From positions 79,473-143,472 of the forward strand of contig JACQSC010000002.1 in assembly GCA_016206155.1 (NCBI GenBank): a stretch of 64,000 nucleotides of DNA, in the 5' to 3' direction. The stretch is from Candidatus Uhrbacteria bacterium (lineage in GTDB: Bacteria; Patescibacteriota; Patescibacteriia; JACQRZ01). Each line of letters starts with the position of its first letter. Within the stretch, counting starts at the first letter, position 1. Both the position numbers and the translations under genes were made by a program. Shown one piece after another: positions 5,813 to 56,718 of this stretch. Below the pieces are notes generated by a model. The model was not told where the DNA came from, did not search any database, and worked only from the letters and a program-made list of their open reading frames with translations.

Positions 5813-6379
5813 ATGAGCGACGAACAGACACAATCCACAGACGATAACGAAACACTGAAGCATGAGCTTGAAACATGCAAGAAGCAGTGTGAGGAATATC
5901 TCAACGGTTGGAAACGTGCAAAGGCCGACTACATTAACTATAAAAATGAAACTGAGAAGCGACGCGATGAGCTTGCGGGCATGGCTCTTATGACCTCAGC
6001 CGCGCAGTTTATCCCACCGCTCGATAATTTAAAAATAGCATTTATCCAGCTGCCGGATGAACTGAAGGAATCTGATTGGGTGAGGGGCATAGAGCAGATT
6101 CGCAAGCAGCTTGTTGAAATCATGAAAGGTTTGGGGGTTGAGGAGTTTGCAGAACCGGTTGTCGGCGCCGCATTTGATCCGGCAAAATTTTACGCCGTTG
6201 GCGAAGAGCGCCGCGATGATTTTGAGGACGGTGTGATTACACAGGAAGTAAGCCCGGGGTACACATTTCGTGGAAGCCTCATGGTTCCAGCGAAGGTTAT
6301 CGTTAATAAGAATCAAGAATCTAGAATTAAGAATCAAGAATCAGAGGGTGACACAGAGAAGAATGACCTTAATTCTTAA
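5813..6379 (+). CDS. grpE: nucleotide exchange factor GrpE
   Basis: Coiled-coil N-terminus followed by a GrpE C-terminal beta domain (…GYTFRGSLMVPAKVIV). Position between hrcA and dnaK. The C-terminal tail NKNQESRIKNQESEG is encoded by AATCAAG-like heptamers. Confidence 0.9.
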   Translation: MSDEQTQSTDDNETLKHELETCKKQCEEYLNGWKRAKADYINYKNETEKRRDELAGMALMTSAAQFIPPLDNLKIAFIQLPDELKESDWVRGIEQIRKQLVEIMKGLGVEEFAEPVVGAAFDPAKFYAVGEERRDDFEDGVITQEVSPGYTFRGSLMVPAKVIVNKNQESRIKNQESEGDTEKNDLNS

Positions 6380-6437
6380 TTCATTATTCATAATTCTTTA
6401 AATTTAAGAAGCGCTAACATATTAATCAAAATATACT

Positions 6438-10524: not shown

Positions 10525-13047
10525 ATGGAGGACATCACTCAATCATTTTCAGATTTGCTTGCAGAGAATCCTTTTTTTGGTTTGTTCCTTGTTCTGATTA
10601 TCATTGGTGCGCTTGGATGGGTCGGTATCCTCGCGCTTCGCTATGCGCTCCACAAGTGGTTTGAAATACCACTCTCTTTAAACAAGAAGGTTTTGCAGAT
10701 TCTCGTTCCGAAAGAGTCTGCAAAGAAGGAGGAAGAAGATAAGTCATCAAAAAAAGATTACAAAGAGCTGATAGCCGTCATGGAGAGCTTTTATTCGGGA
10801 CTGGGACACCTCAAGCCAAAGTTACGATTTTTTGCTTTTTTTATCGGCCGCGAGGATCATATTTCCCTTGAGATTGCCGCGATTGAAGGATTGGTAAAAT
10901 TTTTTATCGTTGTTCCCGCGCACATGCAGCAGTTTTTTGAGCAGCAGCTGCACGCCCAATATCCATCGGCGAAGGTGGAAGAGGTTGAGGATTATAATCT
11001 GTTTCGTCCGCGCGGAGTTATCATCGGCGCGCCGATTGTCGCAACCAAGGCGTCCATGTTTCGTATCCGCACGTACAAGACCATGGACTCCGATCCGCTC
11101 AACGCTCTGACCAACGCCATGAGCAAGGTGGAATCAACGCAGGGCGCGGCGATTCAGCTCGTGATCCGCACCGCGCGAAGAGGATGGGGGCGGCGCGGCG
11201 TTGAGATCGCGCGCAAAGTCCAAAAGGGAAAATCATTAAAAGCGGCCATGCAGGGACCGCTCGCTGGTTTCGTTGACGGGCTGGCGCACACATTGATCAA
11301 AGGTACGTCTGATGCGGTTTTCTCACCTGACAAAAAGTCGCCGCCCATGAAAGGAACGGAGGATCCCTATCCGCGACACTCACCGATGGAGCAGGAGCTT
11401 ATCAAATCGATCGAGGAAAAAGCATCAAAGGGCGGCTTTGAGACGAGTATGCGCGTAGTGACATCGGCAGATGATGAGCGCGTTGCCAAGATGCATTTGC
11501 ATAGTATTGCCAATGCGTTTTCCCAATATCTCGCGCCCGAGTCCGGTATTACACTGCGAAAGAAAAAGTATTTTTATTTCAAAGGATCGTTGATAAAAAG
11601 TTTTATCTATCGCAGGTTTGATCATCGGCGGAAATTTATTTTTTCAACCGAGGAACTTGCCAGCCTGTATCACTTTCCGTTGAGCACAACCGAAACGCCA
11701 AATATACAATGGCTGCACGCGCGCACAGCGCCTCCCCCCGTTGATATCCCACAAGAGGGAATTATTCTTGGTGAAAGCATCTATCGGGGCAAGCGCACCC
11801 TTATTCGCATGAAGCGGGAGGATCGCCGCCGTCACATGTACGTGGTCGGTACGACAGGTGTTGGCAAGACGACGATCATGGAAAACATGATTATTCAGGA
11901 TATTCAGAACGGCGAGGGGTGCGGATTCATCGATCCTCACGGCGAGGCCGTCAAACATATCTTGGAGAATATTCCACCGGAACGCGCCGACGATGTCGTG
12001 TTGTTTGATCCATCGGATACCGATCGGCCAGTTGGCCTCAATATGCTTCAGGCCGACACGCCAGCTGAGACTGATTTTGCCATTCAGGAGATGATTGCGA
12101 TTTTCTATAAATTGGTGACAGATCCCTCCATGATCGGGCCGATGTTTGAGCACTACATGAGGAACGCCATGCTGACCCTTATGTCCGATCCAGTCCATCC
12201 GGGAACAATCGTCGAGATTCCTCGCATTCTTACCGATCGCGACTACCAGACCTACAAATTGCAAACGGTGACCGATCCTATTGTGCGGGCGTTTTGGGAA
12301 AAGGAGCTTCCTCAGACCGCCGGACAGACAAAAGGGGAGATGTTGCCTTACCTTGTATCAAAAATTGGACGGTTTATCGAGAACGTCATGATGCGCAATA
12401 TTATTGGGCAGGAGCATTCCGGTTTTGATTTCCGCGAGGTGATGGATCGTAAAAAAATTCTTCTGGTCAATCTCTCAAAGGGACAAGTCGGAGAGATAAA
12501 CAGCAATCTCTTGGGGCTCGTGGTGGTCTCCAAGCTGCAGATGGCGGCGCTTGCGCGCGCCGATATGCCCTCAGAAAAGCGTCACGATTTTTTTCTCTAC
12601 ATTGATGAGTTTCAAAATTTTATCACCGATAGCATTGCAACGATTCTTTCAGAAGCCCGAAAATATCGGCTTAATCTTGTGCTCGGCCACCAGTATATTG
12701 GACAATTGGTGCCCAAACAGGGTGACACCAAGGTTCGCGATGCCGTGTTTGGCAACGTTGGGACCATTTGCGCATATCGTGTCGGTGTCGATGACGCGGA
12801 ATTGATGGCAAAACAGCTTGCGCCGGTGTTCAATGAGTATGACGTCATCAATACGGAGAAGTACACCGCCAACCTTCGCCTTCTTATCGACAATACAGCG
12901 GCGCGCCCTTTTAGTATGCGTACTTTTCCTCCATTGGAGGGAGATGTGAATATTGCCGAGGCAATTCGGCAGCTTGCGCGCCTTAAATACGGACGCGACC
13001 GCGCGTTGGTTGAGGCCGAGATCCTCGAGCGCTCTCAGCTTGGGTAG
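10525..13047 (+). CDS. TraD/TrwB/VirD4-family coupling-protein-like ATPase with a long N-terminal transmembrane extension
   Basis: N-terminal TM (FFGLFLVLIIIGALGWVGILAL). Walker A motif GTTGVGKTT and Walker B motif FFLYIDEFQNF, followed by HQYIGQL. The architecture matches T4SS coupling-protein and TraG-D_C ATPases. Confidence 0.75.
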   Translation: MEDITQSFSDLLAENPFFGLFLVLIIIGALGWVGILALRYALHKWFEIPLSLNKKVLQILVPKESAKKEEEDKSSKKDYKELIAVMESFYSGLGHLKPKLRFFAFFIGREDHISLEIAAIEGLVKFFIVVPAHMQQFFEQQLHAQYPSAKVEEVEDYNLFRPRGVIIGAPIVATKASMFRIRTYKTMDSDPLNALTNAMSKVESTQGAAIQLVIRTARRGWGRRGVEIARKVQKGKSLKAAMQGPLAGFVDGLAHTLIKGTSDAVFSPDKKSPPMKGTEDPYPRHSPMEQELIKSIEEKASKGGFETSMRVVTSADDERVAKMHLHSIANAFSQYLAPESGITLRKKKYFYFKGSLIKSFIYRRFDHRRKFIFSTEELASLYHFPLSTTETPNIQWLHARTAPPPVDIPQEGIILGESIYRGKRTLIRMKREDRRRHMYVVGTTGVGKTTIMENMIIQDIQNGEGCGFIDPHGEAVKHILENIPPERADDVVLFDPSDTDRPVGLNMLQADTPAETDFAIQEMIAIFYKLVTDPSMIGPMFEHYMRNAMLTLMSDPVHPGTIVEIPRILTDRDYQTYKLQTVTDPIVRAFWEKELPQTAGQTKGEMLPYLVSKIGRFIENVMMRNIIGQEHSGFDFREVMDRKKILLVNLSKGQVGEINSNLLGLVVVSKLQMAALARADMPSEKRHDFFLYIDEFQNFITDSIATILSEARKYRLNLVLGHQYIGQLVPKQGDTKVRDAVFGNVGTICAYRVGVDDAELMAKQLAPVFNEYDVINTEKYTANLRLLIDNTAARPFSMRTFPPLEGDVNIAEAIRQLARLKYGRDRALVEAEILERSQLG

Positions 13048-13050
13048 CGA

Positions 13051-13099
13051 GGGGTCTGGCTCAGTTTTTGCACCGGCAAAATCTGTGCCTGACCCCATT
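13051..13099. repeat. palindromic element copy, intergenic (family with termini GGGGTC(A/T)GG)
   Basis: ggggtctggctcagtttttgc…gcaaaatctgtgcctgacccc forms an imperfect hairpin. Its reverse complement is near-identical to the element inside thrC at 24291..24355. Confidence 0.8.
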
Positions 13100-13141: not shown

Positions 13142-14236
13142 ATGAGTCTCTATCGAAAATATCGCCCTCTTCTTTTTGCGGATATCGCGGGACAGGAACA
13201 TATAAAACAGACGCTTCAGCGCGCGATCGTGCGGAACGAGCTGGTGCACGCCTATCTCTTTTCCGGGCCGCGCGCGGTTGGCAAAACAACAACGGCGCGC
13301 ATTTTAACGCGGGCGGTCAATTGCGCGGCGAGAGCGAGTGATCAAAGCGAACCGTGCAACAGGTGTGACGCCTGTATGGCAATCCTTGAAAACCGCGCGC
13401 TCGATGTCATTGAAATCGACGCCGCATCCCATACGGGGGTTGACAACGTGCGCGATACCATTATCGCCGCCGCGCGCGTTGGGCGTGCAGGACTTGCAAA
13501 AAAGGTATTTATCATCGATGAGGTGCACATGCTCTCAACATCTGCATTCAACGCGCTTCTCAAGATTCTTGAAGAACCTCCCGCGCAGGTGCTTTTTATT
13601 CTTGCAACGACGGAATTACACAAGGTTCCAGCAACAATCGCGTCGCGCTGTCAGCGATTCGACTTTAAAAGGATCGCTCCCGATGTCATGCGAGCACGTC
13701 TGAAAAGACTCATCGGTCTTGAGAAAAAAAATGTAACGGATGACGTTGTTGATACGATTGTTCGCCTTTCGGACGGATGCTTGCGTGACGCGGAATCACT
13801 TCTTGGGCAAGTGCTTGTGCTTGGCGACAAGAAAATCGACCGTGATGCGGCTTGTGTGATATTGCCTATTGGAAACCTCGCCGCAGTGAAGGATCTCATC
13901 GCCGCGCTGCTCGCCGTTGACGGAGCATCCGCGCTTCGCATTATCAACGATTGTATTGAGCGCGATTGCGATCTCTCCGTGTTTACGGCCGATACGCTCG
14001 AATATTTCCGTACGTTGCTGCTTATCCAATCAGGGACGCCCGAGCTGGTTGGGATGAGCGAATCAGAGCTTCGCGAGCGGACGGGGCAGGCGGCACGCAT
14101 CACGAGCGAACGCTTGCTTGCGATAATTGGGCATTTCAGCGTTGCGCAGCGTGATGTGCGCTATTTCTCCATTCCTCAGCTTCCCATTGAAGTTGCAATT
14201 GTCAAAAGTTGCTTGTATACTGACGCACATCAATGA
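13142..14236 (+). CDS. dnaX: DNA polymerase III subunit gamma/tau (short form)
   Basis: YRPLLFADIAGQEHI…GPRAVGKTT…CNRCDAC zinc module…EIDAASHTGVDNVRD and a box VII SRC motif. At 364 aa it covers domains I-III only. Confidence 0.9.
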   Translation: MSLYRKYRPLLFADIAGQEHIKQTLQRAIVRNELVHAYLFSGPRAVGKTTTARILTRAVNCAARASDQSEPCNRCDACMAILENRALDVIEIDAASHTGVDNVRDTIIAAARVGRAGLAKKVFIIDEVHMLSTSAFNALLKILEEPPAQVLFILATTELHKVPATIASRCQRFDFKRIAPDVMRARLKRLIGLEKKNVTDDVVDTIVRLSDGCLRDAESLLGQVLVLGDKKIDRDAACVILPIGNLAAVKDLIAALLAVDGASALRIINDCIERDCDLSVFTADTLEYFRTLLLIQSGTPELVGMSESELRERTGQAARITSERLLAIIGHFSVAQRDVRYFSIPQLPIEVAIVKSCLYTDAHQ

Positions 14237-14289: not shown

Positions 14290-14991
14290 ATGAAAGCATG
14301 GAATAAAGGACAAACCAAAGAAACGAACAAATCCGTCTTGAAGATTTCAAGAACAATGAAGCGCAAGCGCCTCGATAATTTTAAGGCCTGGCGCGATCAT
14401 ATGAAAAACAGCGGAAGGATTAAGTCGGTATATCCCTCTTTTCCAAAAACTGCCGAAGTAGCAGAGCTCATTGGGGTTTTACTTGGGGATGGTCATATAG
14501 AGAGATTTCCACGGACAGAACGGCTCTACATTTTTTCAAACGCCAACAATCACGGTTTTATCCAGAGATACGAAAAAATTTTGACAAGATTGTTTAAGAA
14601 AAAAATCGCCGTAAAAAAAGTTACCGGTAGTGAGTGTGTTAGATTGTCAGTATATGAAAAAAATATCAGCAAAAGAATCGGCATACCATGTGGAAGTAGG
14701 GCAAAATTACATGTGAGAATACCGACATGGATTAGTAATGATGCTTCAGTGTTGCGCTGTTATATCAGGGGGTTGTATGAAGCGGAGGGATCGTTCTGTG
14801 TTCACAAGCCGACATCTACGTATAAGTTTATTTTCGTGAACCACAATGATAGTTTGTTAGATATAGTATTCACCAGCTTGGAGAGATTTGGGTTCCATCC
14901 ACATAGAAGCCTGCACAAGATTCAATTATCGAGAAAGGATGAGGTTATGAGCGCGGTTGATTTTTTTAAGTTTCGGGACTATACTGATTAA
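14290..14991 (+). CDS. LAGLIDADG-family homing endonuclease (free-standing)
   Basis: Two LAGLIDADG-type motifs (LIGVLLGDGHI and LYEAEGSF). The gene is markedly AT-rich compared with its flanks. It sits between dnaX and tRNA-Gln. Confidence 0.75.
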   Translation: MKAWNKGQTKETNKSVLKISRTMKRKRLDNFKAWRDHMKNSGRIKSVYPSFPKTAEVAELIGVLLGDGHIERFPRTERLYIFSNANNHGFIQRYEKILTRLFKKKIAVKKVTGSECVRLSVYEKNISKRIGIPCGSRAKLHVRIPTWISNDASVLRCYIRGLYEAEGSFCVHKPTSTYKFIFVNHNDSLLDIVFTSLERFGFHPHRSLHKIQLSRKDEVMSAVDFFKFRDYTD

Positions 14992-15007
14992 AATTTGATA
15001 TTATAGA

Positions 15008-15078
15008 TGCGGGATGGTGCAACGGCAGCACGCTTGGCTCTGAACCAAGTAATCGTGGTTCGAATCCACGTCCCGCAG
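15008..15078 (+). tRNA. tRNA-Gln (anticodon CTG), CCA not encoded
   Basis: Manual cloverleaf fold: acceptor TGCGGGA/TCCCGCA, D-stem GTGC/GCAC, anticodon stem CTTGG/CCAAG with loop CTCTGAA, T-arm CGTGG-TTCGAAT-CCACG. The U1-A72 pair is typical of tRNA-Gln. Confidence 0.85.
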
Positions 15079-15916
15079 GAAATTACTACAAAATGCATTT
15101 TCGCTCCCTTCAGGAGTATTTGAGTTTGAAATTAAATCCCGCCCAGAATCCAATTTTGAATTGAATTCATAAACAAAATTCCAAGGGGCATTGAAATCCA
15201 CCGCCACTTTCCGCTCCGCGAGGAGGCGGTTCGAGCCGTGTTTTTTAAGAAAATCTTTTTTTGCGAAAAGATTTTCTTCCAAAGCGACATTTTCCGCTTG
15301 GTGAGCAGCTAAAATGAACTTTCTTGAAAGTTCGAGCCACGCGTTGCCCTTTCGCTCAAAATCTTTCAATTTCTGCTCAAGATCCATTTTTTGAGAAAGC
15401 ACTTTGTTCTTCTTTGCCGTGTATTCTTCACGGGAGATAGCTTGCTCCAAATGGGCATCGAGCAGAGTGTCCAGCTTGTCGTCATACACCTTAATCTCAT
15501 TCTTGGTTTTTTGAGCGAATAGGGCATCAGATTGGGCGGTGTCCGATTGATCTTTTTCTAGTTGTTCGAGCATCTCGTCCGTCCAATCTTTTGGCAGAGA
15601 AACTTTTTTGATCATCTCGTTTATCTGTTCGGTGAGAAGCTCTTCGCGAATATATCGTTGAGAACATTTTGTGCCATCCTTTTTCTTCGTGCATCGGTAA
15701 TATGCGTGTCCTTTCTTAGACTCGGCAGTAATTGAACAGCCACACTCTCCGCACGAAAAAAGTCCACGAAGGGGAAAAAGCTTCTCGCCCCGTTTCTTTG
15801 GGCAGGCCTTGCTTGTAAGCACTGTCTGCACACTATCAAAAAGTTTCTTTGACACGCATGGCTCATGAGTTCCAGAAAAAAGCTCGCCGTTGGAAAGGAA
15901 GGCACCGTAAGTCAAA

Positions 15917-15963
15917 ATAATGGGGTCAGGAGCCATTAAATTAATGGCTCCTGACCCCATTAT
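15917..15963. repeat. perfect palindrome AATGGGGTCAGGAGCCATTAA-a-TTAATGGCTCCTGACCCCATT, followed by (CATTATTTC)x3
   Basis: The arms were verified by reverse complement. It shares the AATGGGGTCAGG terminus with the copies at 13051, 24291 and 56081. It sits at the truncated 5' end of the recombinase remnant. Confidence 0.85.
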
Positions 15964-16101
15964 TTCCATTATTTCCCATTATTTCATGACCACATTATCC
16001 TATGGACCAGTGCAAGATATAGACATACTCATTTTGACGCTGTATGATGGTTTTAATGTCATACCCGTCCGCAATTTAACGCATACGAACACGAATGCAT
16101 T

Positions 16102-22540: not shown

Positions 22541-22622
22541 GAAGAATTACGAATTACGAATTAAGCATAAAAAGCAACAGATTTAAGCTCCTTAATTCTT
22601 AATTCTTGATTCGTAATTCTTC
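22541..22622. repeat. imperfect inverted repeat built from GAATTAC/GAATTAA heptamers (hairpin between asd and thrB)
   Basis: gaagaattacgaattacgaattaag …35 nt… cttaattcttaattcttgattcgtaattcttc. The arms are reverse-complementary apart from one heptamer variant. Confidence 0.75.
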
Positions 22623-22646: not shown

Positions 22647-23582
22647 ATGCATAAAATAAAAGTGTTTGCCCCGGCAACCGTTGCCAATGTAGGTCCCGGA
22701 TTTGATGTCTTTGGTTTTGCCGTTGAGCAGCCCGGAGATGAGGTTGTTGCGACATTATCAGATACGCGCGGCGTTCGTGTCATTGAGATTACAGGTGACA
22801 ATGGCCTGTTGTCAAAAGATGCGGATAAGAATACCGCTGCCGTTGCAGCGAAAGGACTCCTCGAGCATCTTGGAAGCAATCAAGGCATTGAATTGTCGGT
22901 TCACAAAAAAATGCCGCTTGGAAGCGGTCTGGGATCGAGCGCGGCAAGCGCGGTTGCAGGAGTTGTTGCGGCAAATGAATTGCTTGGCGCGCCATTGTCT
23001 CGGCGGGAGCTTTTACCTTTTACGATGGAAGGCGAGCGTGTCGCGTGCGGCGCCGCGCATGCGGATAATGTTGCGCCGTCACTTCTCGGCGGATTTATTT
23101 TGATTCGCAGTTATGACCCACTTGATGTTATCCGGATTCCCACACCGGAGAATCTTTGGTGCACCGTTGTTCATCCGCACATAGAGGTTCGCACTGAGGA
23201 TGCGCGGCGCATTATGCCAAAGGAAATTTCGATACCAACGGGCATAGCGCAATGGGGCAATACGGCAGGACTTATCGCAGGGCTGTTTGCAAACGATCTC
23301 GAATTGATTGGCCGTTCGTTGGTTGATCATGTCGCCGAGCCGGCACGCTCACAGCTGATTCCCGGGTTTACTGAAGTGAAAAAAACAGCGTTGCGGTTAG
23401 GCGCGCTTGGTTCAAGCATATCGGGGAGCGGTCCGTCAGTTTTTGCGTTGAGTGATTCGCAAGAAAAAGCGAAGCGCATAGGGCAAGCGATGCATGATGC
23501 ATGGACAGATCGCTATTCACTTGACAGCGACGTGTTTGTATCGCAAATCAATAAGGAAGGCCCGCGTATTATTTCACAATGA
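22647..23582 (+). CDS. thrB: homoserine kinase
   Basis: GHMP-kinase motif PLGSGLGSSAASAVAGVVAANELLG. N-terminus VFAPATVANVGPGFD. Confidence 0.9.
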   Translation: MHKIKVFAPATVANVGPGFDVFGFAVEQPGDEVVATLSDTRGVRVIEITGDNGLLSKDADKNTAAVAAKGLLEHLGSNQGIELSVHKKMPLGSGLGSSAASAVAGVVAANELLGAPLSRRELLPFTMEGERVACGAAHADNVAPSLLGGFILIRSYDPLDVIRIPTPENLWCTVVHPHIEVRTEDARRIMPKEISIPTGIAQWGNTAGLIAGLFANDLELIGRSLVDHVAEPARSQLIPGFTEVKKTALRLGALGSSISGSGPSVFALSDSQEKAKRIGQAMHDAWTDRYSLDSDVFVSQINKEGPRIISQ

Positions 23583-24928
23583 ACTATTACAGCACAAACA
23601 AAAAAGCGCCGAGCGTGTCATTGCGCGAGGCGGTATTGAACGGTCTTGCGCAGGACGGGGGATTGTATATGCCTGAGCGGATTTCACAGATGCCGTCAGA
23701 TTTTTTTGTTCGTCTTCCCTCGCTATCATTTCAAGAAATTGCATACGAGGTTGGCCGTGTGCTTTTTGCCGGAGATCTTCCCGACAGTACTCTGGATGAG
23801 ATATGCAGAGAAAGTTTTGATTTTCCTGTTCCGTTAAAGCGTGTCGATGCATCGACACACGCTCTTGAGCTATTCCATGGGCCGACACTGGCATTCAAGG
23901 ATTTTGCCGCACGATTTATGGCTCGGCTCATGGGCTATTACGTGCGTCATGATGATCGGGAGCTGACTATCCTTGTCGCAACATCCGGAGATACGGGAAG
24001 CGCGGCTGCGCACGGTTTTCTTAATGTTCCTGGCATTCGCGTCTTTATTCTCTATCCATCCGGCCGGGTCAGCGATCTTCAGGAGAAGCAGCTGACGACA
24101 ATGGGCGGGAACATCACCGCGCTTGAAGTTCAGGGGAGTTTTGATGATTGTCAGGCGCTGGCAAAGCAGGCATTTGTTGATCCGGATTTAAAAAAGAAAA
24201 TGCGCATGGGATCGGCAAATTCAATTAACATCGCGCGGCTTTTTCCGCAGACGTTTTATTACTGGTGGGCAGTTGAACAAATGGGGAAACGGGGTCAGGC
24301 ACAGATTTTGCATTCGCAAAAACTGAGCCAGACCCCAACTGAGCCAGACCCCATTATCGTCTCTGTCCCGAGTGGCAACGTTGGCAATCTCACGGCCGGG
24401 CTTATTGCAAAACAAATGGGTCTGCCAATTGGCCGCTTTATTGCCGCATGCAATGAAAATAACGTTATTCCGGAGTACCTTAAAACAGGGATCTTCACGC
24501 CGAAGCCTTCTCGTGCTACGATATCCAATGCCATGGATGTAGGCAATCCAAGCAATTTTGTGCGGATGCAGGAGCTCTATGGTCACTCTGCAGATGCGAT
24601 GAGGCATGATCTCTCGGCCCATTCCTTCACCGACGATCAGACACGAGCGGCGATGCGGGATGTGTATAACGATACGGGATATATTCTTGACCCTCATGGC
24701 GCCGTTGGATATTGCGCGCTCAAGGAATATCAGAAACAATATCCGGAAACGTATGGCATTATTCTTGAGACCGCTCATCCGGCAAAATTCAAAGACGTTG
24801 TAGAGGACACTATCGGCTCGCCGGTTGACATACCAAAGCGTCTGGCAGAATATATGATGCGAGAGAAGCAAGCAGTTTTACTACCCGCGCGATTTGGGGC
24901 ATTAAAAGAATTTTTGATTAGCTCATGA
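23579..24928 (+). CDS. thrC: threonine synthase (carries an in-frame palindromic-element insertion)
   Basis: PLP-binding FHGPTLAFKD lysine motif and SGNVGNLTAG. Overlaps the thrB stop. Positions 24291-24355 encode an extra peptide (…GQAQILHSQKLSQTPTEPDP…) from a repeat element. Confidence 0.92.
   Translation: MNYYSTNKKAPSVSLREAVLNGLAQDGGLYMPERISQMPSDFFVRLPSLSFQEIAYEVGRVLFAGDLPDSTLDEICRESFDFPVPLKRVDASTHALELFHGPTLAFKDFAARFMARLMGYYVRHDDRELTILVATSGDTGSAAAHGFLNVPGIRVFILYPSGRVSDLQEKQLTTMGGNITALEVQGSFDDCQALAKQAFVDPDLKKKMRMGSANSINIARLFPQTFYYWWAVEQMGKRGQAQILHSQKLSQTPTEPDPIIVSVPSGNVGNLTAGLIAKQMGLPIGRFIAACNENNVIPEYLKTGIFTPKPSRATISNAMDVGNPSNFVRMQELYGHSADAMRHDLSAHSFTDDQTRAAMRDVYNDTGYILDPHGAVGYCALKEYQKQYPETYGIILETAHPAKFKDVVEDTIGSPVDIPKRLAEYMMREKQAVLLPARFGALKEFLISS
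24291..24355. repeat. palindromic element copy inserted in-frame inside thrC
   Basis: ggggtcaggcacagattttgc-attc-gcaaaaactgagccagacccc forms a 21-bp stem with three A-A mismatches. The right arm is partially duplicated (aactgagccagacccc x2). Near-identical to the reverse complement of 13051..13099. Confidence 0.85.
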
Positions 24929-24959
24929 ACTCCCTCATGAACTCTCTCATGAACTATGA
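24924..24959. repeat. 12-mer tandem repeat (CATGAACTCCCT, CATGAACTCTCT, CATGAACTATGA) linking the thrC stop to the next start codon
   Basis: The thrC TGA (24926-28) lies in unit 1. The ATG of the downstream gene (24956) lies in unit 3. Confidence 0.85.
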
Positions 24960-25138
24960 CATCGAAAAAATGTATTACAGGCGTATCAGTGCGAAAATTA
25001 TCAAAAGTCGCAGGAGGCAAGAGCTATAGCATGACCATTCCGAGTGATATCGTTCGTGCATTTGGATGGAAAGAACACCAGAAGCTTGTTGTCTCCCGCG
25101 TCGGACGACATATTGTCATAAAAGATTGGAGGAAATAA
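24956..25138 (+). CDS. small AbrB/MazE/SpoVT-like DNA-binding protein (antitoxin-like fold)
   Basis: 60 aa. VRKLSKVAGGKSYSMTIPSDIVRAFGWKEHQKLVVSRVGRHIVIKD fits the swapped-hairpin AbrB/MazE pattern. A GGAGG ribosome-binding site for the next gene overlaps its 3' end. Confidence 0.5.
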   Translation: MTSKKCITGVSVRKLSKVAGGKSYSMTIPSDIVRAFGWKEHQKLVVSRVGRHIVIKDWRK

Positions 25139-25140
25139 GT

Positions 25141-25860
25141 ATGCCAAAAAAACAACCAGGACCAGAATCAGCAGGGGACGGACAGGAGTCATTTGAGCAA
25201 GCACCAATGGGCGGTGATATTAAAACCGGGAGGAAAACCGGTGAAACGAAGAATGAGAATCAATATTTTGCGCTCATTCGAGATATGCGCGCGAGGGCGG
25301 ACAGTGTTTCGCTGGACATACATGAGCACGCAGTAACGCGCAGCGTGAAGAGACCTATTAGAATGAAGGATAAGCGATATTACGTTGATGCGATCATTTC
25401 CGCCAGACCGACTATTGATCCAGGCGGAGGACATGATTATGATTCAGCAATTTATGTACATAGCTATGCAGTGCATCGTGAAGTAGTAGATGAGATGCGC
25501 TTCGTAGATCAGATGCGCGATGAAAAATATGTTGCGCGTAATAAGGTGAGTGAACCCATGATGGAATCAGCGAATGATATAGGAGGGTACGTTATACAGA
25601 TTAGCCTTCCCGATCCAGTGTCATTCTTTGTTAATTCTCGAGATCATAATGTAGTGAGAAGGTTGCATCGAGAAATTGTGCGAATGAGCGAGAAGCTTGC
25701 GACACTTGACGCAGAGCGGGTTGCAGATATGTTTTCGGATCGTCATGTAAATGATCTTGCGAGTGACGGAGATCGGCTCATAAGCGAACGTGAATATATG
25801 GTTCTTCCAGACCCGCCCTATGAGAGTCCGCACGAGAAGCGCTATCCTCTCACTGAATAA
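25141..25860 (+). CDS. hypothetical protein (one copy of an unknown ~90-aa module)
   Basis: ATG at 25141 preceded by GGAGGA. It contains YVDAIISARPTIDPGGGHDYDSAIYVHSYAVH…NDIGGYVI, which also appears twice in the next protein. Confidence 0.55.
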   Translation: MPKKQPGPESAGDGQESFEQAPMGGDIKTGRKTGETKNENQYFALIRDMRARADSVSLDIHEHAVTRSVKRPIRMKDKRYYVDAIISARPTIDPGGGHDYDSAIYVHSYAVHREVVDEMRFVDQMRDEKYVARNKVSEPMMESANDIGGYVIQISLPDPVSFFVNSRDHNVVRRLHREIVRMSEKLATLDAERVADMFSDRHVNDLASDGDRLISEREYMVLPDPPYESPHEKRYPLTE

Positions 25861-25869
25861 GAAGTCATT

Positions 25870-27087
25870 ATGAAGAATCACATGAAAGCTGAGTTCGGAC
25901 CGTTTGAACTGCCGCAGCCGCACGATAACGACCGCGATCACAATCCTGAACAGAGCGGCCAGCGCCCACAGCATCCCGAACGTGAGAAGATTGTTATCAC
26001 CGATCCACAACAGTATCAGCATGCACTTGAGAACGTTGCCAAAATCATCTCGGCGAAAGAGTATACAGGCCACCAGCACTCTTTTTTTATTGATATTCAG
26101 GGCGAAGATGATTCTGTAATACCGTCTCGGTATATTGATGCATTTGTAACAGCGCGTCGGGCATATCGTATTCCCGACTATAAAAAGTCAGGCGACTGGA
26201 TTCGAAAGCCAGCCTTTGTCATCCATACGTATGCGGTGAGCGATATGTTTGACGATCGCGGCAGAACGCCGCTTAGAACAGAAAACGATATCGCGGGATA
26301 TTATCTTACCGCAGGAACCGCAGGCAATACCTATGGAATGTTTGTCCGTACGCATAATCGTCAGCTCCTCAAAGGATTGCATGAAACACTTGTTAAGCTG
26401 TGTTCGAAAAAGTCAGAACCAAAAAATCCGCAAACTGCTATTCAAGAACTTTACGAACAATACAATAACACACAGCATAATGAAGCATCTTCTGTCACCG
26501 AATTCATATGGAAAGGCATCATTCCACGTACACCAATACCTGGCATGCCCCTTCTGAGTATCGTTCAGGAATTGCGCGCAAGCGATCGTCCGGAAGATGA
26601 CACACTATCAGAAGAGTCGATTGAACGAAGCAGTTACGATCGAGAGAGACGAAAGCGGATGCGTATCGCGGCGCTTCGCAACCATGACGAGCAGCAGGTT
26701 GAATTGCCGGATTATTGTCCGCGGGGCTATCTATCGCCACGTCGTAGGGGGGATCGCCGTGTTTATATAGATGAAATTATTTCTGGGCGGAGTGATGGTA
26801 TTTATCTTCATACGCGAGGAATTGACCTTGAGCGAAAACCACTCATGAAGCCGACGGATATTACAGCCTACAAAACGACGTTCGGCCTTGAACCATTTGC
26901 GTATGATCTTATCATTTATACCAAAGATCGGGCAGATGCCGTGAAAGTTCACGCAGAAATTATTGAACGCGCGCAGCATATTATTCATGATCCAGCATTT
27001 AGCCCACTGCATATTCTGCGGGCTCTTGCTGAGGAATATAATAGGGGGCGCGATATGCCATTTATTCGCGTACTTACTGCTGAATGA
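25870..27087 (+). CDS. hypothetical protein (two copies of the same unknown module)
   Basis: RYIDAFVTARRAY…AFVIHTYAVS…NDIAGYYL and RVYIDEIISGRSDGIY…TDITAYKT. There is an acidic/basic linker (ERRKRMRIAALRNHDEQQ). No nameable homology. Confidence 0.6.
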   Translation: MKNHMKAEFGPFELPQPHDNDRDHNPEQSGQRPQHPEREKIVITDPQQYQHALENVAKIISAKEYTGHQHSFFIDIQGEDDSVIPSRYIDAFVTARRAYRIPDYKKSGDWIRKPAFVIHTYAVSDMFDDRGRTPLRTENDIAGYYLTAGTAGNTYGMFVRTHNRQLLKGLHETLVKLCSKKSEPKNPQTAIQELYEQYNNTQHNEASSVTEFIWKGIIPRTPIPGMPLLSIVQELRASDRPEDDTLSEESIERSSYDRERRKRMRIAALRNHDEQQVELPDYCPRGYLSPRRRGDRRVYIDEIISGRSDGIYLHTRGIDLERKPLMKPTDITAYKTTFGLEPFAYDLIIYTKDRADAVKVHAEIIERAQHIIHDPAFSPLHILRALAEEYNRGRDMPFIRVLTAE

Positions 27088-55509: not shown

Positions 55510-56718
55510 TTACGAGGCGGACGTGCGTCGCTGAGTCATGATAAAAACTATAAAGCACAGCGTTGCCAAAGCGGCTAGTACAGCGCCAAATAGAAAAGGA
55601 GCAGAAGGACTCACTCGATCCCACAGCAGACCAGCAATAAAACTCGCTGGCAGGCTCACAAGTCCAATAGCGGTGTTATAGATGCCATATGCCCGACCGC
55701 GATGAGTGGCAGGGACCATATCGGCGACAAACGCCTTGGCAACACCATAAGTTGTTGCATAGTAGAGTCCGTAGAACGCAAAGAGGAGCCATATCTGATA
55801 GCTTGCGTTCGCAAGTCCAAATCCGAGATACGCAATGGCATACGCACACCACCCAAGCAGAATGACTTTTTCGCGTCCAATCCTGTCAGATAGACTGCCA
55901 AGGGGAACCGACGCGCTTGCATAGACCGCATTAAACAGCGCAAACACAAGCGGAATGGCAAGAATGGTGACGCCAACATCCTGCGCGCGAAGAATGAGAA
56001 ACGCGTCGGATGAATTACCGATGCCAAAAAGCAGCACGATTGCGAGGAAGATATAAAATTTTTTTGGGATGGCGCGAGCTGTGAAAATGGTGTCAGGAAT
56101 AGTTTTTGCAGAAACTATTCCTGACACCATTTTCACGGATGTTTCTTTCACCTTTGTTTGGAGGAGGGTCAGCGTAATAAGAAGCGGGAATGCGCAGGCG
56201 ACGAGAATGATCTGATACTGGAGCGGATGGTCTTTCAAAATGTACAGAAGCAAAAAAAGGACGAGCGGCCCCGCTACTGATCCGAATGTATCCAGCATGC
56301 GCGCAATGCCAAAACTTTTCCCCCGCGTAGAAGCGTCAGACGAATCGGCAATCAGCGCATCTTTTGGCGAATCCTTCAATCCCTTACCGATACCGTCGAG
56401 GAAGCGTAAAAAAAGAATACCCCCCGCACTTGAGATAACGGCCAGAAGTGGTCGCGCTATCATCGAAAGAAAGTAGCCAAGGAAAATAAAAGGTTTTTTC
56501 TTTCCGAACTTATCAACCCAGAATCCCGATACGATTTTAAAAAGGCTGGCTCCACTGGTAACAAGTCCCTCCGAAATGCCAATGAATGCTTTATCAAGTC
56601 CTATGACATTGGCAAGATACAGTGGAAGTATAGGAGCAAAAATATCCTGGCTGATTCCGCCAAAGAAGCTCAACAGGCCTATGAAGAAAACATTTTTCGT
56701 TGGTTTTTTCACTTTCAT
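55510..56718 (-). CDS. MFS transporter (carries an in-frame palindromic-element insertion in the central loop)
   Basis: 12-TM topology and an MFS motif region (…FGKKKPFIFLGYFLS…). The central cytoplasmic loop is encoded by the 56081..56136 palindrome. Confidence 0.85.
   Translation of the reverse strand: MKVKKPTKNVFFIGLLSFFGGISQDIFAPILPLYLANVIGLDKAFIGISEGLVTSGASLFKIVSGFWVDKFGKKKPFIFLGYFLSMIARPLLAVISSAGGILFLRFLDGIGKGLKDSPKDALIADSSDASTRGKSFGIARMLDTFGSVAGPLVLFLLLYILKDHPLQYQIILVACAFPLLITLTLLQTKVKETSVKMVSGIVSAKTIPDTIFTARAIPKKFYIFLAIVLLFGIGNSSDAFLILRAQDVGVTILAIPLVFALFNAVYASASVPLGSLSDRIGREKVILLGWCAYAIAYLGFGLANASYQIWLLFAFYGLYYATTYGVAKAFVADMVPATHRGRAYGIYNTAIGLVSLPASFIAGLLWDRVSPSAPFLFGAVLAALATLCFIVFIMTQRRTSAS
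56081..56136. repeat. perfect 25-bp-arm palindrome (GTGAAAATGGTGTCAGGAATAGTTT-ttgcag-AAACTATTCCTGACACCATTTTCAC) inside the MFS gene
   Basis: The arms are exact reverse complements. The terminus AATGGTGTCAGG resembles the AATGGGGTCAGG family. The host reading frame is preserved. Confidence 0.85.

Follow-up and report, generated by a model that had tools for sequence, protein, structure and literature searches.

Why should a gene for threonine synthase carry, within an unbroken reading frame, a DNA hairpin whose arms recur elsewhere in the same genome and in the genes of other organisms? The gene in question, thrC, lies in a 64-kb stretch of DNA (the window, hereafter) that comes from a 244,926-bp contig belonging to a Candidatus Uhrbacteria metagenome-assembled genome (MAG; Candidate Phyla Radiation (CPR)/Patescibacteria, ~49% G+C), where it follows asd and thrB in an operon whose gene order is the same in relatives. 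We think it probable, at somewhat better than even chances, that the thrC feature is a copy of a short, non-autonomous hairpin repeat of the REP/REPIN type, moved in trans by a RAYT-like Y1 transposase and carried as a translated passenger in a tolerant loop of the protein.

The host gene itself looks functional, because the residues that are invariant in the ThrC family are all present in an alignment of 26 homologues, and its open reading frame (ORF) matches Escherichia coli ThrC (1vb3) with E = 2.6e-105. An earlier note on this DNA, made from the letters alone, had described a hairpin-forming element inside the thrC ORF, with part of its right arm duplicated and the frame unbroken, and each of these statements held on closer analysis. 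The element comprises an imperfect 46-bp palindrome (window 24291-24336; arms of 21 nt, 18 pairs, three 1x1 A·A mismatches), a 16-nt repeat of the arm and a terminal ATT, and its parts are as follows.

23579..24928, + strand: thrC, threonine synthase, 449 aa, the host gene; ORF uninterrupted, with Pfam domains Thr_synth_N, PALP and THR4_C
24291-24311, + strand: left arm ggggtcaggcacagattttgc / GGGGTCAGGCACAGATTTTGC, translated (R)GQAQIL
24312-24315, + strand: loop ATTC, replaced by another sequence in each paralogous copy (CGGT, GGTA, TGGT)
24316-24336, + strand: right arm gcaaaaactgagccagacccc / GCAAAAACTGAGCCAGACCCC, translated QKLSQTP, pairing with the left arm save for the three A·A mismatches
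24337-24352, + strand: extra 16-nt piece aactgagccagacccc / AACTGAGCCAGACCCC, an exact repeat of 24321-24336 (the distal right arm), read in the other open frame as TEPDP
24353-24355, + strand: ATT, the last three bases of the family terminus CCCCATT and at the same time the native codon for Ile in the conserved P-I-V motif

Together these encode R238-P258 of the protein (KRGQAQILHSQKLSQTPTEPDPI), and it is the extra 16-nt piece that restores the frame of the downstream part of the gene. The hairpin is stable both as DNA (-17.9 kcal/mol, z = -6.0 against shuffled sequence) and as RNA (-28 kcal/mol, z = -5.1). Rfam 15 matched no family at the element, where the best score was 18.1 bits against a cut-off of 75.9, and found four tRNAs and nothing else over the whole window. 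An assembly artefact was ruled out, as an identical ThrC is encoded on L001, an independent Logan assembly, and a contig from another study (L002) also has the element.

That the segment is an insertion relative to unrelated lineages, as the earlier note had proposed, is evident from protein alignments: E. coli ThrC shows a gap of 16 residues at the position of the element, and in 23 of the 26 aligned homologues, Uhrbacteria orthologues among them, 17-18 residues are missing between the helix that ends ...YYxxAxxQ and the strand PIVxSVPSGN. Its size required correction, from the roughly 20 residues first suggested to a net 17 against typical orthologues and 6 against the closest one. An AlphaFold2 model of ThrC (mean predicted local distance difference test score, pLDDT, 89.4) shows residues 238-258 as coil that links helix 223-237 to strand 259-264 and has a pLDDT below 50 over residues 245-254, and the element is thus predicted to occupy a disordered loop connecting the two at the protein surface. 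This loop is a general indel hotspot. The same alignment columns (~275-297) hold unrelated extra segments in two other ThrC proteins (P0004, +5 aa; P0089, +11 aa), which were considered as further palindromic elements and rejected, there being no convincing hairpin in either.

The insertion is not private to the window genome. The closest ThrC (P0002, 74% identical, encoded on a Hainich groundwater contig) contains the same element at the same junctions (AAAATGGGGTCAGGCACAGATTTGC-TTC-GCAAAACTGAGCCAGACCCTATT), and over 43 aligned nucleotides the two elements differ by no substitution at all, the only changes being three 1-nt indels, one in each arm, where pairing is kept, and one in the loop. 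Elsewhere along the two genes DNA identity is 72.7%, falling to 48% for third positions and 45% for four-fold degenerate sites. The left arm is translated in another frame in P0002 (GSGTDLLRKTEPDP, vs GQAQILHSQKLSQTPTEPDP in the window), leaving TEPDP as the only part of the translated element that the two proteins have in common. Relative to P0002 the window gene has 1 nt fewer at the left junction, 3 nt more in the arms and loop, and the 16-nt arm piece; these sum to +18 nt (six codons), which puts the gene back in frame. As the P0002 copy occupies the same site, is read in another frame and shows no substitution over 43 nt, the peptide would appear, from these sequences, to be a passenger and the DNA hairpin to be the conserved unit; the insertion itself is presumably neutral for ThrC function.

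These comparisons bear directly on two alternatives. It is hardly credible that the extra 17 residues are an adaptive feature of ThrC, such as an interaction or regulatory loop, in which the palindrome is incidental: the insertion has been kept in two diverged orthologues, as such a role would require, but the idea is already contradicted by the different frames in which those orthologues read the left arm, with TEPDP alone shared, and it sits poorly with the disorder predicted by the model and with translation of the same DNA in unrelated proteins. For the same reason, of the earlier suggestion that the element tolerates or is selected for in-frame insertion, the tolerance stands and the selection does not, since the frames differ between orthologues; there is no sign of selection for in-frame insertion, two stop-free frames out of three being unremarkable at 46 nt. 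The second alternative keeps selection but shifts it to the nucleic acid, with the hairpin acting as a cis-regulatory element of the thr operon, whether as an attenuator within the gene, as a site for RNase III or as a translational pause that aids folding. Zero substitutions in 43 nt of a gene that is otherwise 27% diverged, compensatory 1-nt indels in both arms and the stability of the RNA hairpin are all consistent with this. However, identical arms also occur in an intergenic spacer and in the rmlD genes of other organisms, so that arm conservation is a property of the family and not of thrC; the element is moreover missing from 23 of the 26 ThrC orthologues, including those of Uhrbacteria, and has no match to an Rfam family. 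We consider a regulatory role improbable.

The family to which the element belongs is already apparent within the window. Allowing up to three mismatches, the 21-mer arm occurs four times (both arms at 24291, both at 13051) against 0.00 expected, and GGKGTCWGG occurs nine times against 0.62 expected, all within four loci (13051, 15922, 24291 and 56089). The common foot is (A)AATGG[G/T]GTCAGG...CCTGAC[C/A]CCATT(T), with a conserved block of 11-12 nt. Besides the thrC copy, the window holds the following members.

13051..13096, - strand: paralogous copy, arms 42/42 identical to those of the thrC copy, loop CGGT in thrC orientation; intergenic
15915..15965, no strand: palindrome with a perfect 25-nt stem AAATAATGGGGTCAGGAGCCATTAA and an interior of its own, at the 5' end of ORF 15001..15969(-)
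56081..56136, no strand: palindrome with a 28-nt stem and the foot AATGGTGTCAGG, in frame in the central loop of a major facilitator superfamily (MFS) transporter, 55510..56718(-)

The earlier note had recognized the intergenic copy as almost identical, in reverse complement, to the thrC element, and indeed only the 4-nt loop differs; it had also matched the termini to palindromes at 15917 and 56081, and these do have the termini AATGGGGTCAGG and AATGGTGTCAGG in common, with differing interiors and stems that are perfect or near-perfect. Four loci in the 64-kb window, intergenic as well as intragenic and in frame, together with nested copies in the rmlD gene of the same genome (L138, described below), bear out the proposal of a repeat family. 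Three of the four window copies overlap ORFs, and two of these are internal and in frame. The remaining, intergenic copy begins 3 nt past the stop codon of a VirD4/TraG-like ORF (10525..13047) and lies upstream of dnaX (13142..14236). The 15915 copy supplies the first 17 codons (MEIMGSGAINLMAPDPI) of ORF 15001..15969(-), which is only a C-terminal zinc-ribbon fragment of a serine recombinase and adjoins a tRNA; the surrounding region (14290-16100) looks like a mobile-element remnant, containing that fragment, the tRNA (15008-15078, + strand) and an ORF with a LAGLIDADG domain (14290..14991). The MFS copy is translated as VKMVSGIVSAKTIPDTIF, a 9-aa insertion that an 88%-identical Uhrbacteria orthologue lacks, as do 14 others, and at the DNA level it puts 56 bp in place of ~29 nt of variable loop, with no target duplication.

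A scan of metagenomes for thrC-type arms found five contigs and extends the pattern to a second housekeeping gene, rmlD. One of the five (L124) encodes an RmlD with three in-frame copies (470-530, 962-1012 and 1088-1143), of which two correspond to gaps of 15 and 16 aa against solved PDB structures of RmlD, while the third, close to the N-terminus and at a break in the PDB alignment, shows up as an insertion only when set against three orthologues at the DNA level. The loop that precedes FGIYHY carries family copies in the RmlD of the window genome (P0242, L138), of GCA_016209345.1 (P0243) and of a third relative (P0244), and the same loop is short in at least six other CPR orthologues. The RmlD proteins of four Uhrbacteria-lineage organisms thus have one to three in-frame copies each, some of them nested.

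L138:1736-1830: rmlD copies of the window's own genome
L141:4702-4796: rmlD copies
L142:1353-1450: rmlD copies
L124: three rmlD copies, at the positions given above

Translation of the left arm in coding copies yields MGSG/MVSG or WGQ, that of the right arm (E)PDPI or (S)QTPF; no coding copy uses the right arm's third frame, in which there is a TGA. The nested copies also offer an origin for the extra arm piece in thrC. In the L142 rmlD a complete thrC-type element stands between the left arm AATGGGGTCAGGTACAGATTTTG and the right-arm remnant AAACTGAGCCAGACCCCATT of an outer copy, and in the L138 and L141 genes the apex of an outer thrC-type copy has given way to an element from another subfamily (AAAATGGTGTCAGGT...CCAGACACCGTTTTC). 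Because the L142 rmlD has, at an unrelated locus, the same architecture as the window thrC, namely a complete element followed by AACTGAGCCAGACCCCATT, the extra piece in thrC is, by analogy, probably the remnant of an older resident copy whose apex took up a second one. Alternatively, the piece may have arisen by slippage duplication; the loops of the window and P0002 copies are similar (ATTC and TTC), which favours orthology of the complete copies, and tandem arm duplications are also seen in L069, L075 and L020. A different insertion is translated in the N-terminal region of the L138 and L141 RmlD (LDPGLRRDD, from GGATCCCGGCCTGCGCCGGGATGAC), and insertions of the type HSERSE...IPRHARNDG are seen at the protein level in three further RmlD proteins (P0249, P0251, P0257), which suggests that the translation of repeats in CPR proteins extends to several unrelated families.

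Across loci and species, the arms are conserved to an unusual degree. The 42 arm nucleotides, with their three A·A mismatches, are identical in four copies from at least three organisms (24291-24336, 13051-13096, L124:1092-1137 and L142:1378-1423), the loops of these copies are unrelated (ATTC, CGGT, GGTA and TGGT), and the RmlD proteins of the L124 and L142 organisms are 72-78% identical to that of the window genome. Such identity of 42/42 arm positions around randomized loops looks like selection on the stem, and it could be read as a sign that the hairpins are sequences with a host function (bidirectional terminators, mRNA stabilizers, or sites for nucleoid or replication proteins) which spread by gene conversion, the thrC copy being a by-product. 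Other facts can be enlisted for this explanation, including the 13051 copy placed 3 nt past a stop codon, the 15915 copy scored as a terminator on both strands, the A/T tracts that flank the foot in most genomes among the matches listed below, and the lack of a transposase within the window; in their GC-containing stems and the A-/T-rich flanks of many copies the hairpins do resemble Rho-independent terminators. However, copies inside thrC, the MFS gene and rmlD would be useless as terminators, the thrC copy lies within a gene and is followed by no U-tract, and sequence as well as structure is conserved across loci and species. In addition, nested copies and arm remnants are hallmarks of insertion, and the motif flanks Y1 transposase genes in other genomes. 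A host function is in our judgement unlikely. Two further candidates were set aside. Pairs of a Neisseria-like DNA uptake signal acting as terminators are unsupported, the copies being intragenic, nested and associated with Y1 genes, and a Tn3-family inverted repeat, despite the resemblance of the Tn3 ends (GGGGTCTGACGCTCAG), does not suit 46-bp hairpins without 5-bp duplications.

How far does the family reach? An exact scan, with one genome per species, for ATGGKGTCAGG-N6-36-CCTGACMCCAT found foot palindromes in at least 119 stretches (loci L005-L123, for example L010, L014, L018, L029, L057, L069 and L107; some genomes are counted repeatedly). Among the matches listed, to which all figures in this paragraph refer, are Proteobacteria, Bacilli, Clostridia, Actinobacteria, Elusimicrobia, Verrucomicrobia, Planctomycetota, Chlamydiae, Omnitrophica, Aminicenantes and one Nomurabacteria (CPR) MAG. 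Three properties of these matches support a real family: extra half-sites number 72 against ~13 expected (control 9-mers, 3-29), with at least one extra copy in 42 of the 119 loci; the flanks are biased (A in 70% at -1, T in 57% at +1, G in 2-3% at +2 and +3); and each genome has its own multi-copy subfamily of interiors, the palindrome often extending past the conserved block. The elements are scarcer in long open frames: a frame of 150 aa or more covers 41% of them vs 88% of control positions. In-frame copies do occur in other phyla, as in the GMP synthase GuaA of an Elusimicrobia genome (L022:2996-3025, ..LADGNGVRSEDLTPLPHPGVF..) and in a Planctomycetota genome (L118:5916-5958). A search of the literature by string (GGGGTCAGG/CCTGACCCC) returned unrelated eukaryotic papers only.

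What might move such hairpins? Among the HUH/Y1 'domesticated' transposases the second-largest class is TnpA-Y1 subclass 2.1, for which, to our knowledge, no DNA substrates are known. RAYT-like tyrosine transposase genes without REPs, called 'TIRYT', have flanking inverted repeats that share GGGGWSAS (Di Nocera et al. 2013, PMC3733652); TIRYT are the TnpA-Y1 of subclass 2.1, are present in 14.9% of strains, and had no REP-like partners nearby (Quentin et al. 2018, PMC6006769). The core GGGGTCAG, which fits GGGGWSAS, stands in the left arm of two copies (thrC and 13051) and in each arm of the 15915 copy, and the family thereby has the outer-arm motif GGGG[AT][CG]A[CG] of these terminal inverted repeats (TIRs); the complementary arm of thrC-type copies (GGGGTCTG) departs from it at position 7, and the 56081 copy has the variant GGTGTCAG.

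The motif is also found beside Y1 genes. In a Luteimonas MAG (L075, 3333-4170) a Y1_Tnp gene (PF01797, E = 3.7e-13) has inverted copies of AAAATGGTGTCAGGGACAATTT on both sides, an arrangement known as 'TIRtron' architecture, and hairpins built from the same arms lie near it; the protein scores 61 bits on the NCBIfam model REP_Tyr_transpos, whose cut-off is 80 bits. Homologous Y1 genes in two Opitutae MAGs (L120, 461-964; L026, 87-1022) have a motif copy on one side each. All three proteins fall below the NCBIfam cut-off and have the HUH motif as NHAHLLL or NHFHLML; because it is here NHAH/NHFH, a strict RAYT-motif regular expression gave nothing, and the genes were sought by inspecting ORFs, by tblastn and with a small profile. 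Among the matches listed, a Y1 gene adjoins the motif in three of the 119 8-kb loci, which exceeds chance on a rough estimate of ~0.04-0.24 expected from the reported prevalence of such genes. At the sites of insertion, three comparisons of filled with empty alleles (thrC, MFS and rmlD site 2) show no target-site duplication, and in every one of them the ends of the element overlap native bases (AAGGGG, CCTATT, CATTAC).

Where the earlier note spoke of a 'MITE/REP-like element', these results separate the two terms. The REP/REPIN-type part of the description stands and the classical MITE (short for miniature inverted-repeat transposable element) part does not, because there is no target-site duplication and GGGGTCAG fits GGGGWSAS. 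As the deletion derivative of an insertion sequence with a DDE transposase, moved by cut-and-paste, a MITE would share with our elements the terminal inverted repeats, the small size, the presence in multiple copies and the division into lineage-specific subfamilies. But the entire element here is one hairpin of 46-56 bp, target-site duplications are lacking at all three sites compared, the transposase genes found flanked by the motif are of the Y1/HUH type only, and no DDE transposase was seen among the scanned ORFs of the window, which makes such an origin very unlikely. Given the motif fit, the association in other genomes and the lack of target duplications, we infer instead that a TIRYT mobilizes, or has mobilized, the hairpins in the Uhrbacteria genome, presumably by a single-strand mechanism.

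Several observations weigh against mobilization by a Y1 transposase and temper our confidence in it. No Y1_Tnp gene was found in the 64-kb window, whether by tblastn, by a 3-sequence profile or by Pfam on 39 ORFs, and the three cases of a transposase gene beside the motif represent no more than two lineages. About 44 kb in three related Uhrbacteria contigs (L003, L004, L135) contained no copies of the element. The cross-phylum count of at least 119 is by itself weak evidence, because scrambled-arm palindromes also occur by chance: in a viral contig collection the true pattern had 0 matches and three scrambled-arm palindromes had 5, 0 and 1, in a control that is not like-for-like. Finally, identical arms with unrelated loops fit neither simple copy-and-paste nor neutral decay.

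With these reservations, the history of the locus under a Y1-mobilized REP/REPIN-type repeat might run as follows. The hairpins would be recognized as single-stranded DNA by a RAYT-like HUH/Y1 tyrosine transposase (TIRYT, TnpA-Y1 subclass 2.1), which would copy them in trans, and they would land without target-site duplication, often in the apex of resident copies. One copy would have entered thrC at the surface link between a helix and the strand that leads to the loop binding the phosphate of pyridoxal phosphate (PLP), and would survive there because two of the three frames of the element are without a stop codon. The total length of the insert would have been brought to a multiple of three, in thrC by way of the extra 16-nt right-arm piece, and the ThrC loop would tolerate the 17 predicted disordered residues, with the peptide as a passenger.

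Palindromic selfish repeats in coding sequence are already known, and here they are found in a new group, Candidatus Uhrbacteria. The Rickettsia palindromic elements (RPEs), reportedly described by Ogata and colleagues in 2000, are like our family in being palindromic selfish repeats that lie in frame inside housekeeping genes, preserve the gene and have copies common to related species. Both add short segments to proteins, the one in ThrC in a loop predicted to be disordered, and both occupy permissive sites in frame, as our family does in thrC, the MFS gene and rmlD. RPEs, which are also discussed in PMC3733652, differ in being ~100-150 bp long, confined to Rickettsia and presumably of unrelated sequence, whereas our family consists of a single hairpin of 46-56 bp (46-62 bp with the arm piece) with the foot GGGGTCAGG, occurs in Candidatus Uhrbacteria and has its motif in many phyla. 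With the REPs and REPINs that accompany RAYTs (Nunvar 2010; Bertels and Rainey 2011; Messing 2012) it shares short, imperfect, multi-copy palindromes without target duplication, dimers and nested clusters, a master sequence conserved over the long term, and association with a single-copy Y1/HUH transposase; intragenic REPs have also been reported (PMC3733652). Unlike REPs, our family has no GTAG or CGTC tag, all copies ending in AATGGGG/CCCCATT (the one GTAG near the window copies, at 13045, includes the stop codon of the ORF upstream and has no counterpart at the others), and a RAYT was not found within the window of this genome. The TIRs of TIRtrons, of which self-complementary repeat families are described in S. 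maltophilia (PMC3733652), are similar in that GGGGTCAG fits GGGGWSAS and in that Y1 genes with the same motif alongside were verified in Luteimonas and Opitutae. However, TIR repeats are not known to have been described in CPR/Patescibacteria or as translated in-frame insertions, and in the Uhrbacteria genome the link to them is by motif alone.

The window has other features besides. A second repeat family consists of hairpins made of tandem heptamers (GAATTAC/GAATTAA/GAATCAA) at 22541-22622 and 6303-6396, with 12 pattern matches vs 0.15 expected. One of these hairpins fills the spacer between asd and thrB, which is 129 nt here vs 1-37 nt in two related contigs (L003 and L004), and the other overlaps the 3' end of grpE (5813..6379), to which it gives the last ~22 codons and the stop, the Pfam GrpE domain ending at residue 166 of 188. 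Just 3' of thrC (region 24956-27087) lie an ORF for a MazE-like antitoxin (24956..25138) and then two ORFs of 264 and 405 aa without a Pfam match (25066..25860 and 25870..27087), and the arrangement downstream of thrC is the same on the independent Logan contig L001.

It is possible, and we offer this only tentatively, that hairpins with the AATGGGGTCAGG foot are pan-bacterial REP-equivalents of TnpA-Y1 subclass 2.1, which in small CPR genomes with little intergenic space reside mainly inside coding sequence, home into their own apices and keep their arms 42/42 identical across species while their loops randomize. If so, they would be subject to active, sequence-specific maintenance, for example transposase-guided replacement or conversion, and not to passive decay; the combination of identical arms and unrelated loops across species poses a puzzle for study at the population level. 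The easily searched DNA motif is a candidate substrate for the poorly understood TIRYT/subclass 2.1 transposases. Annotation and homology modelling are affected as well, because unexplained insertions of 10-25 residues may be repeat DNA, and in-frame copies would serve as natural maps of the permissive sites of proteins. For the CPR bacteria themselves, whose genomes are tiny and gene-dense, the ThrC, RmlD and MFS transporter copies suggest that selfish hairpin repeats can persist in essential enzymes as translated loops that are predicted to be disordered.

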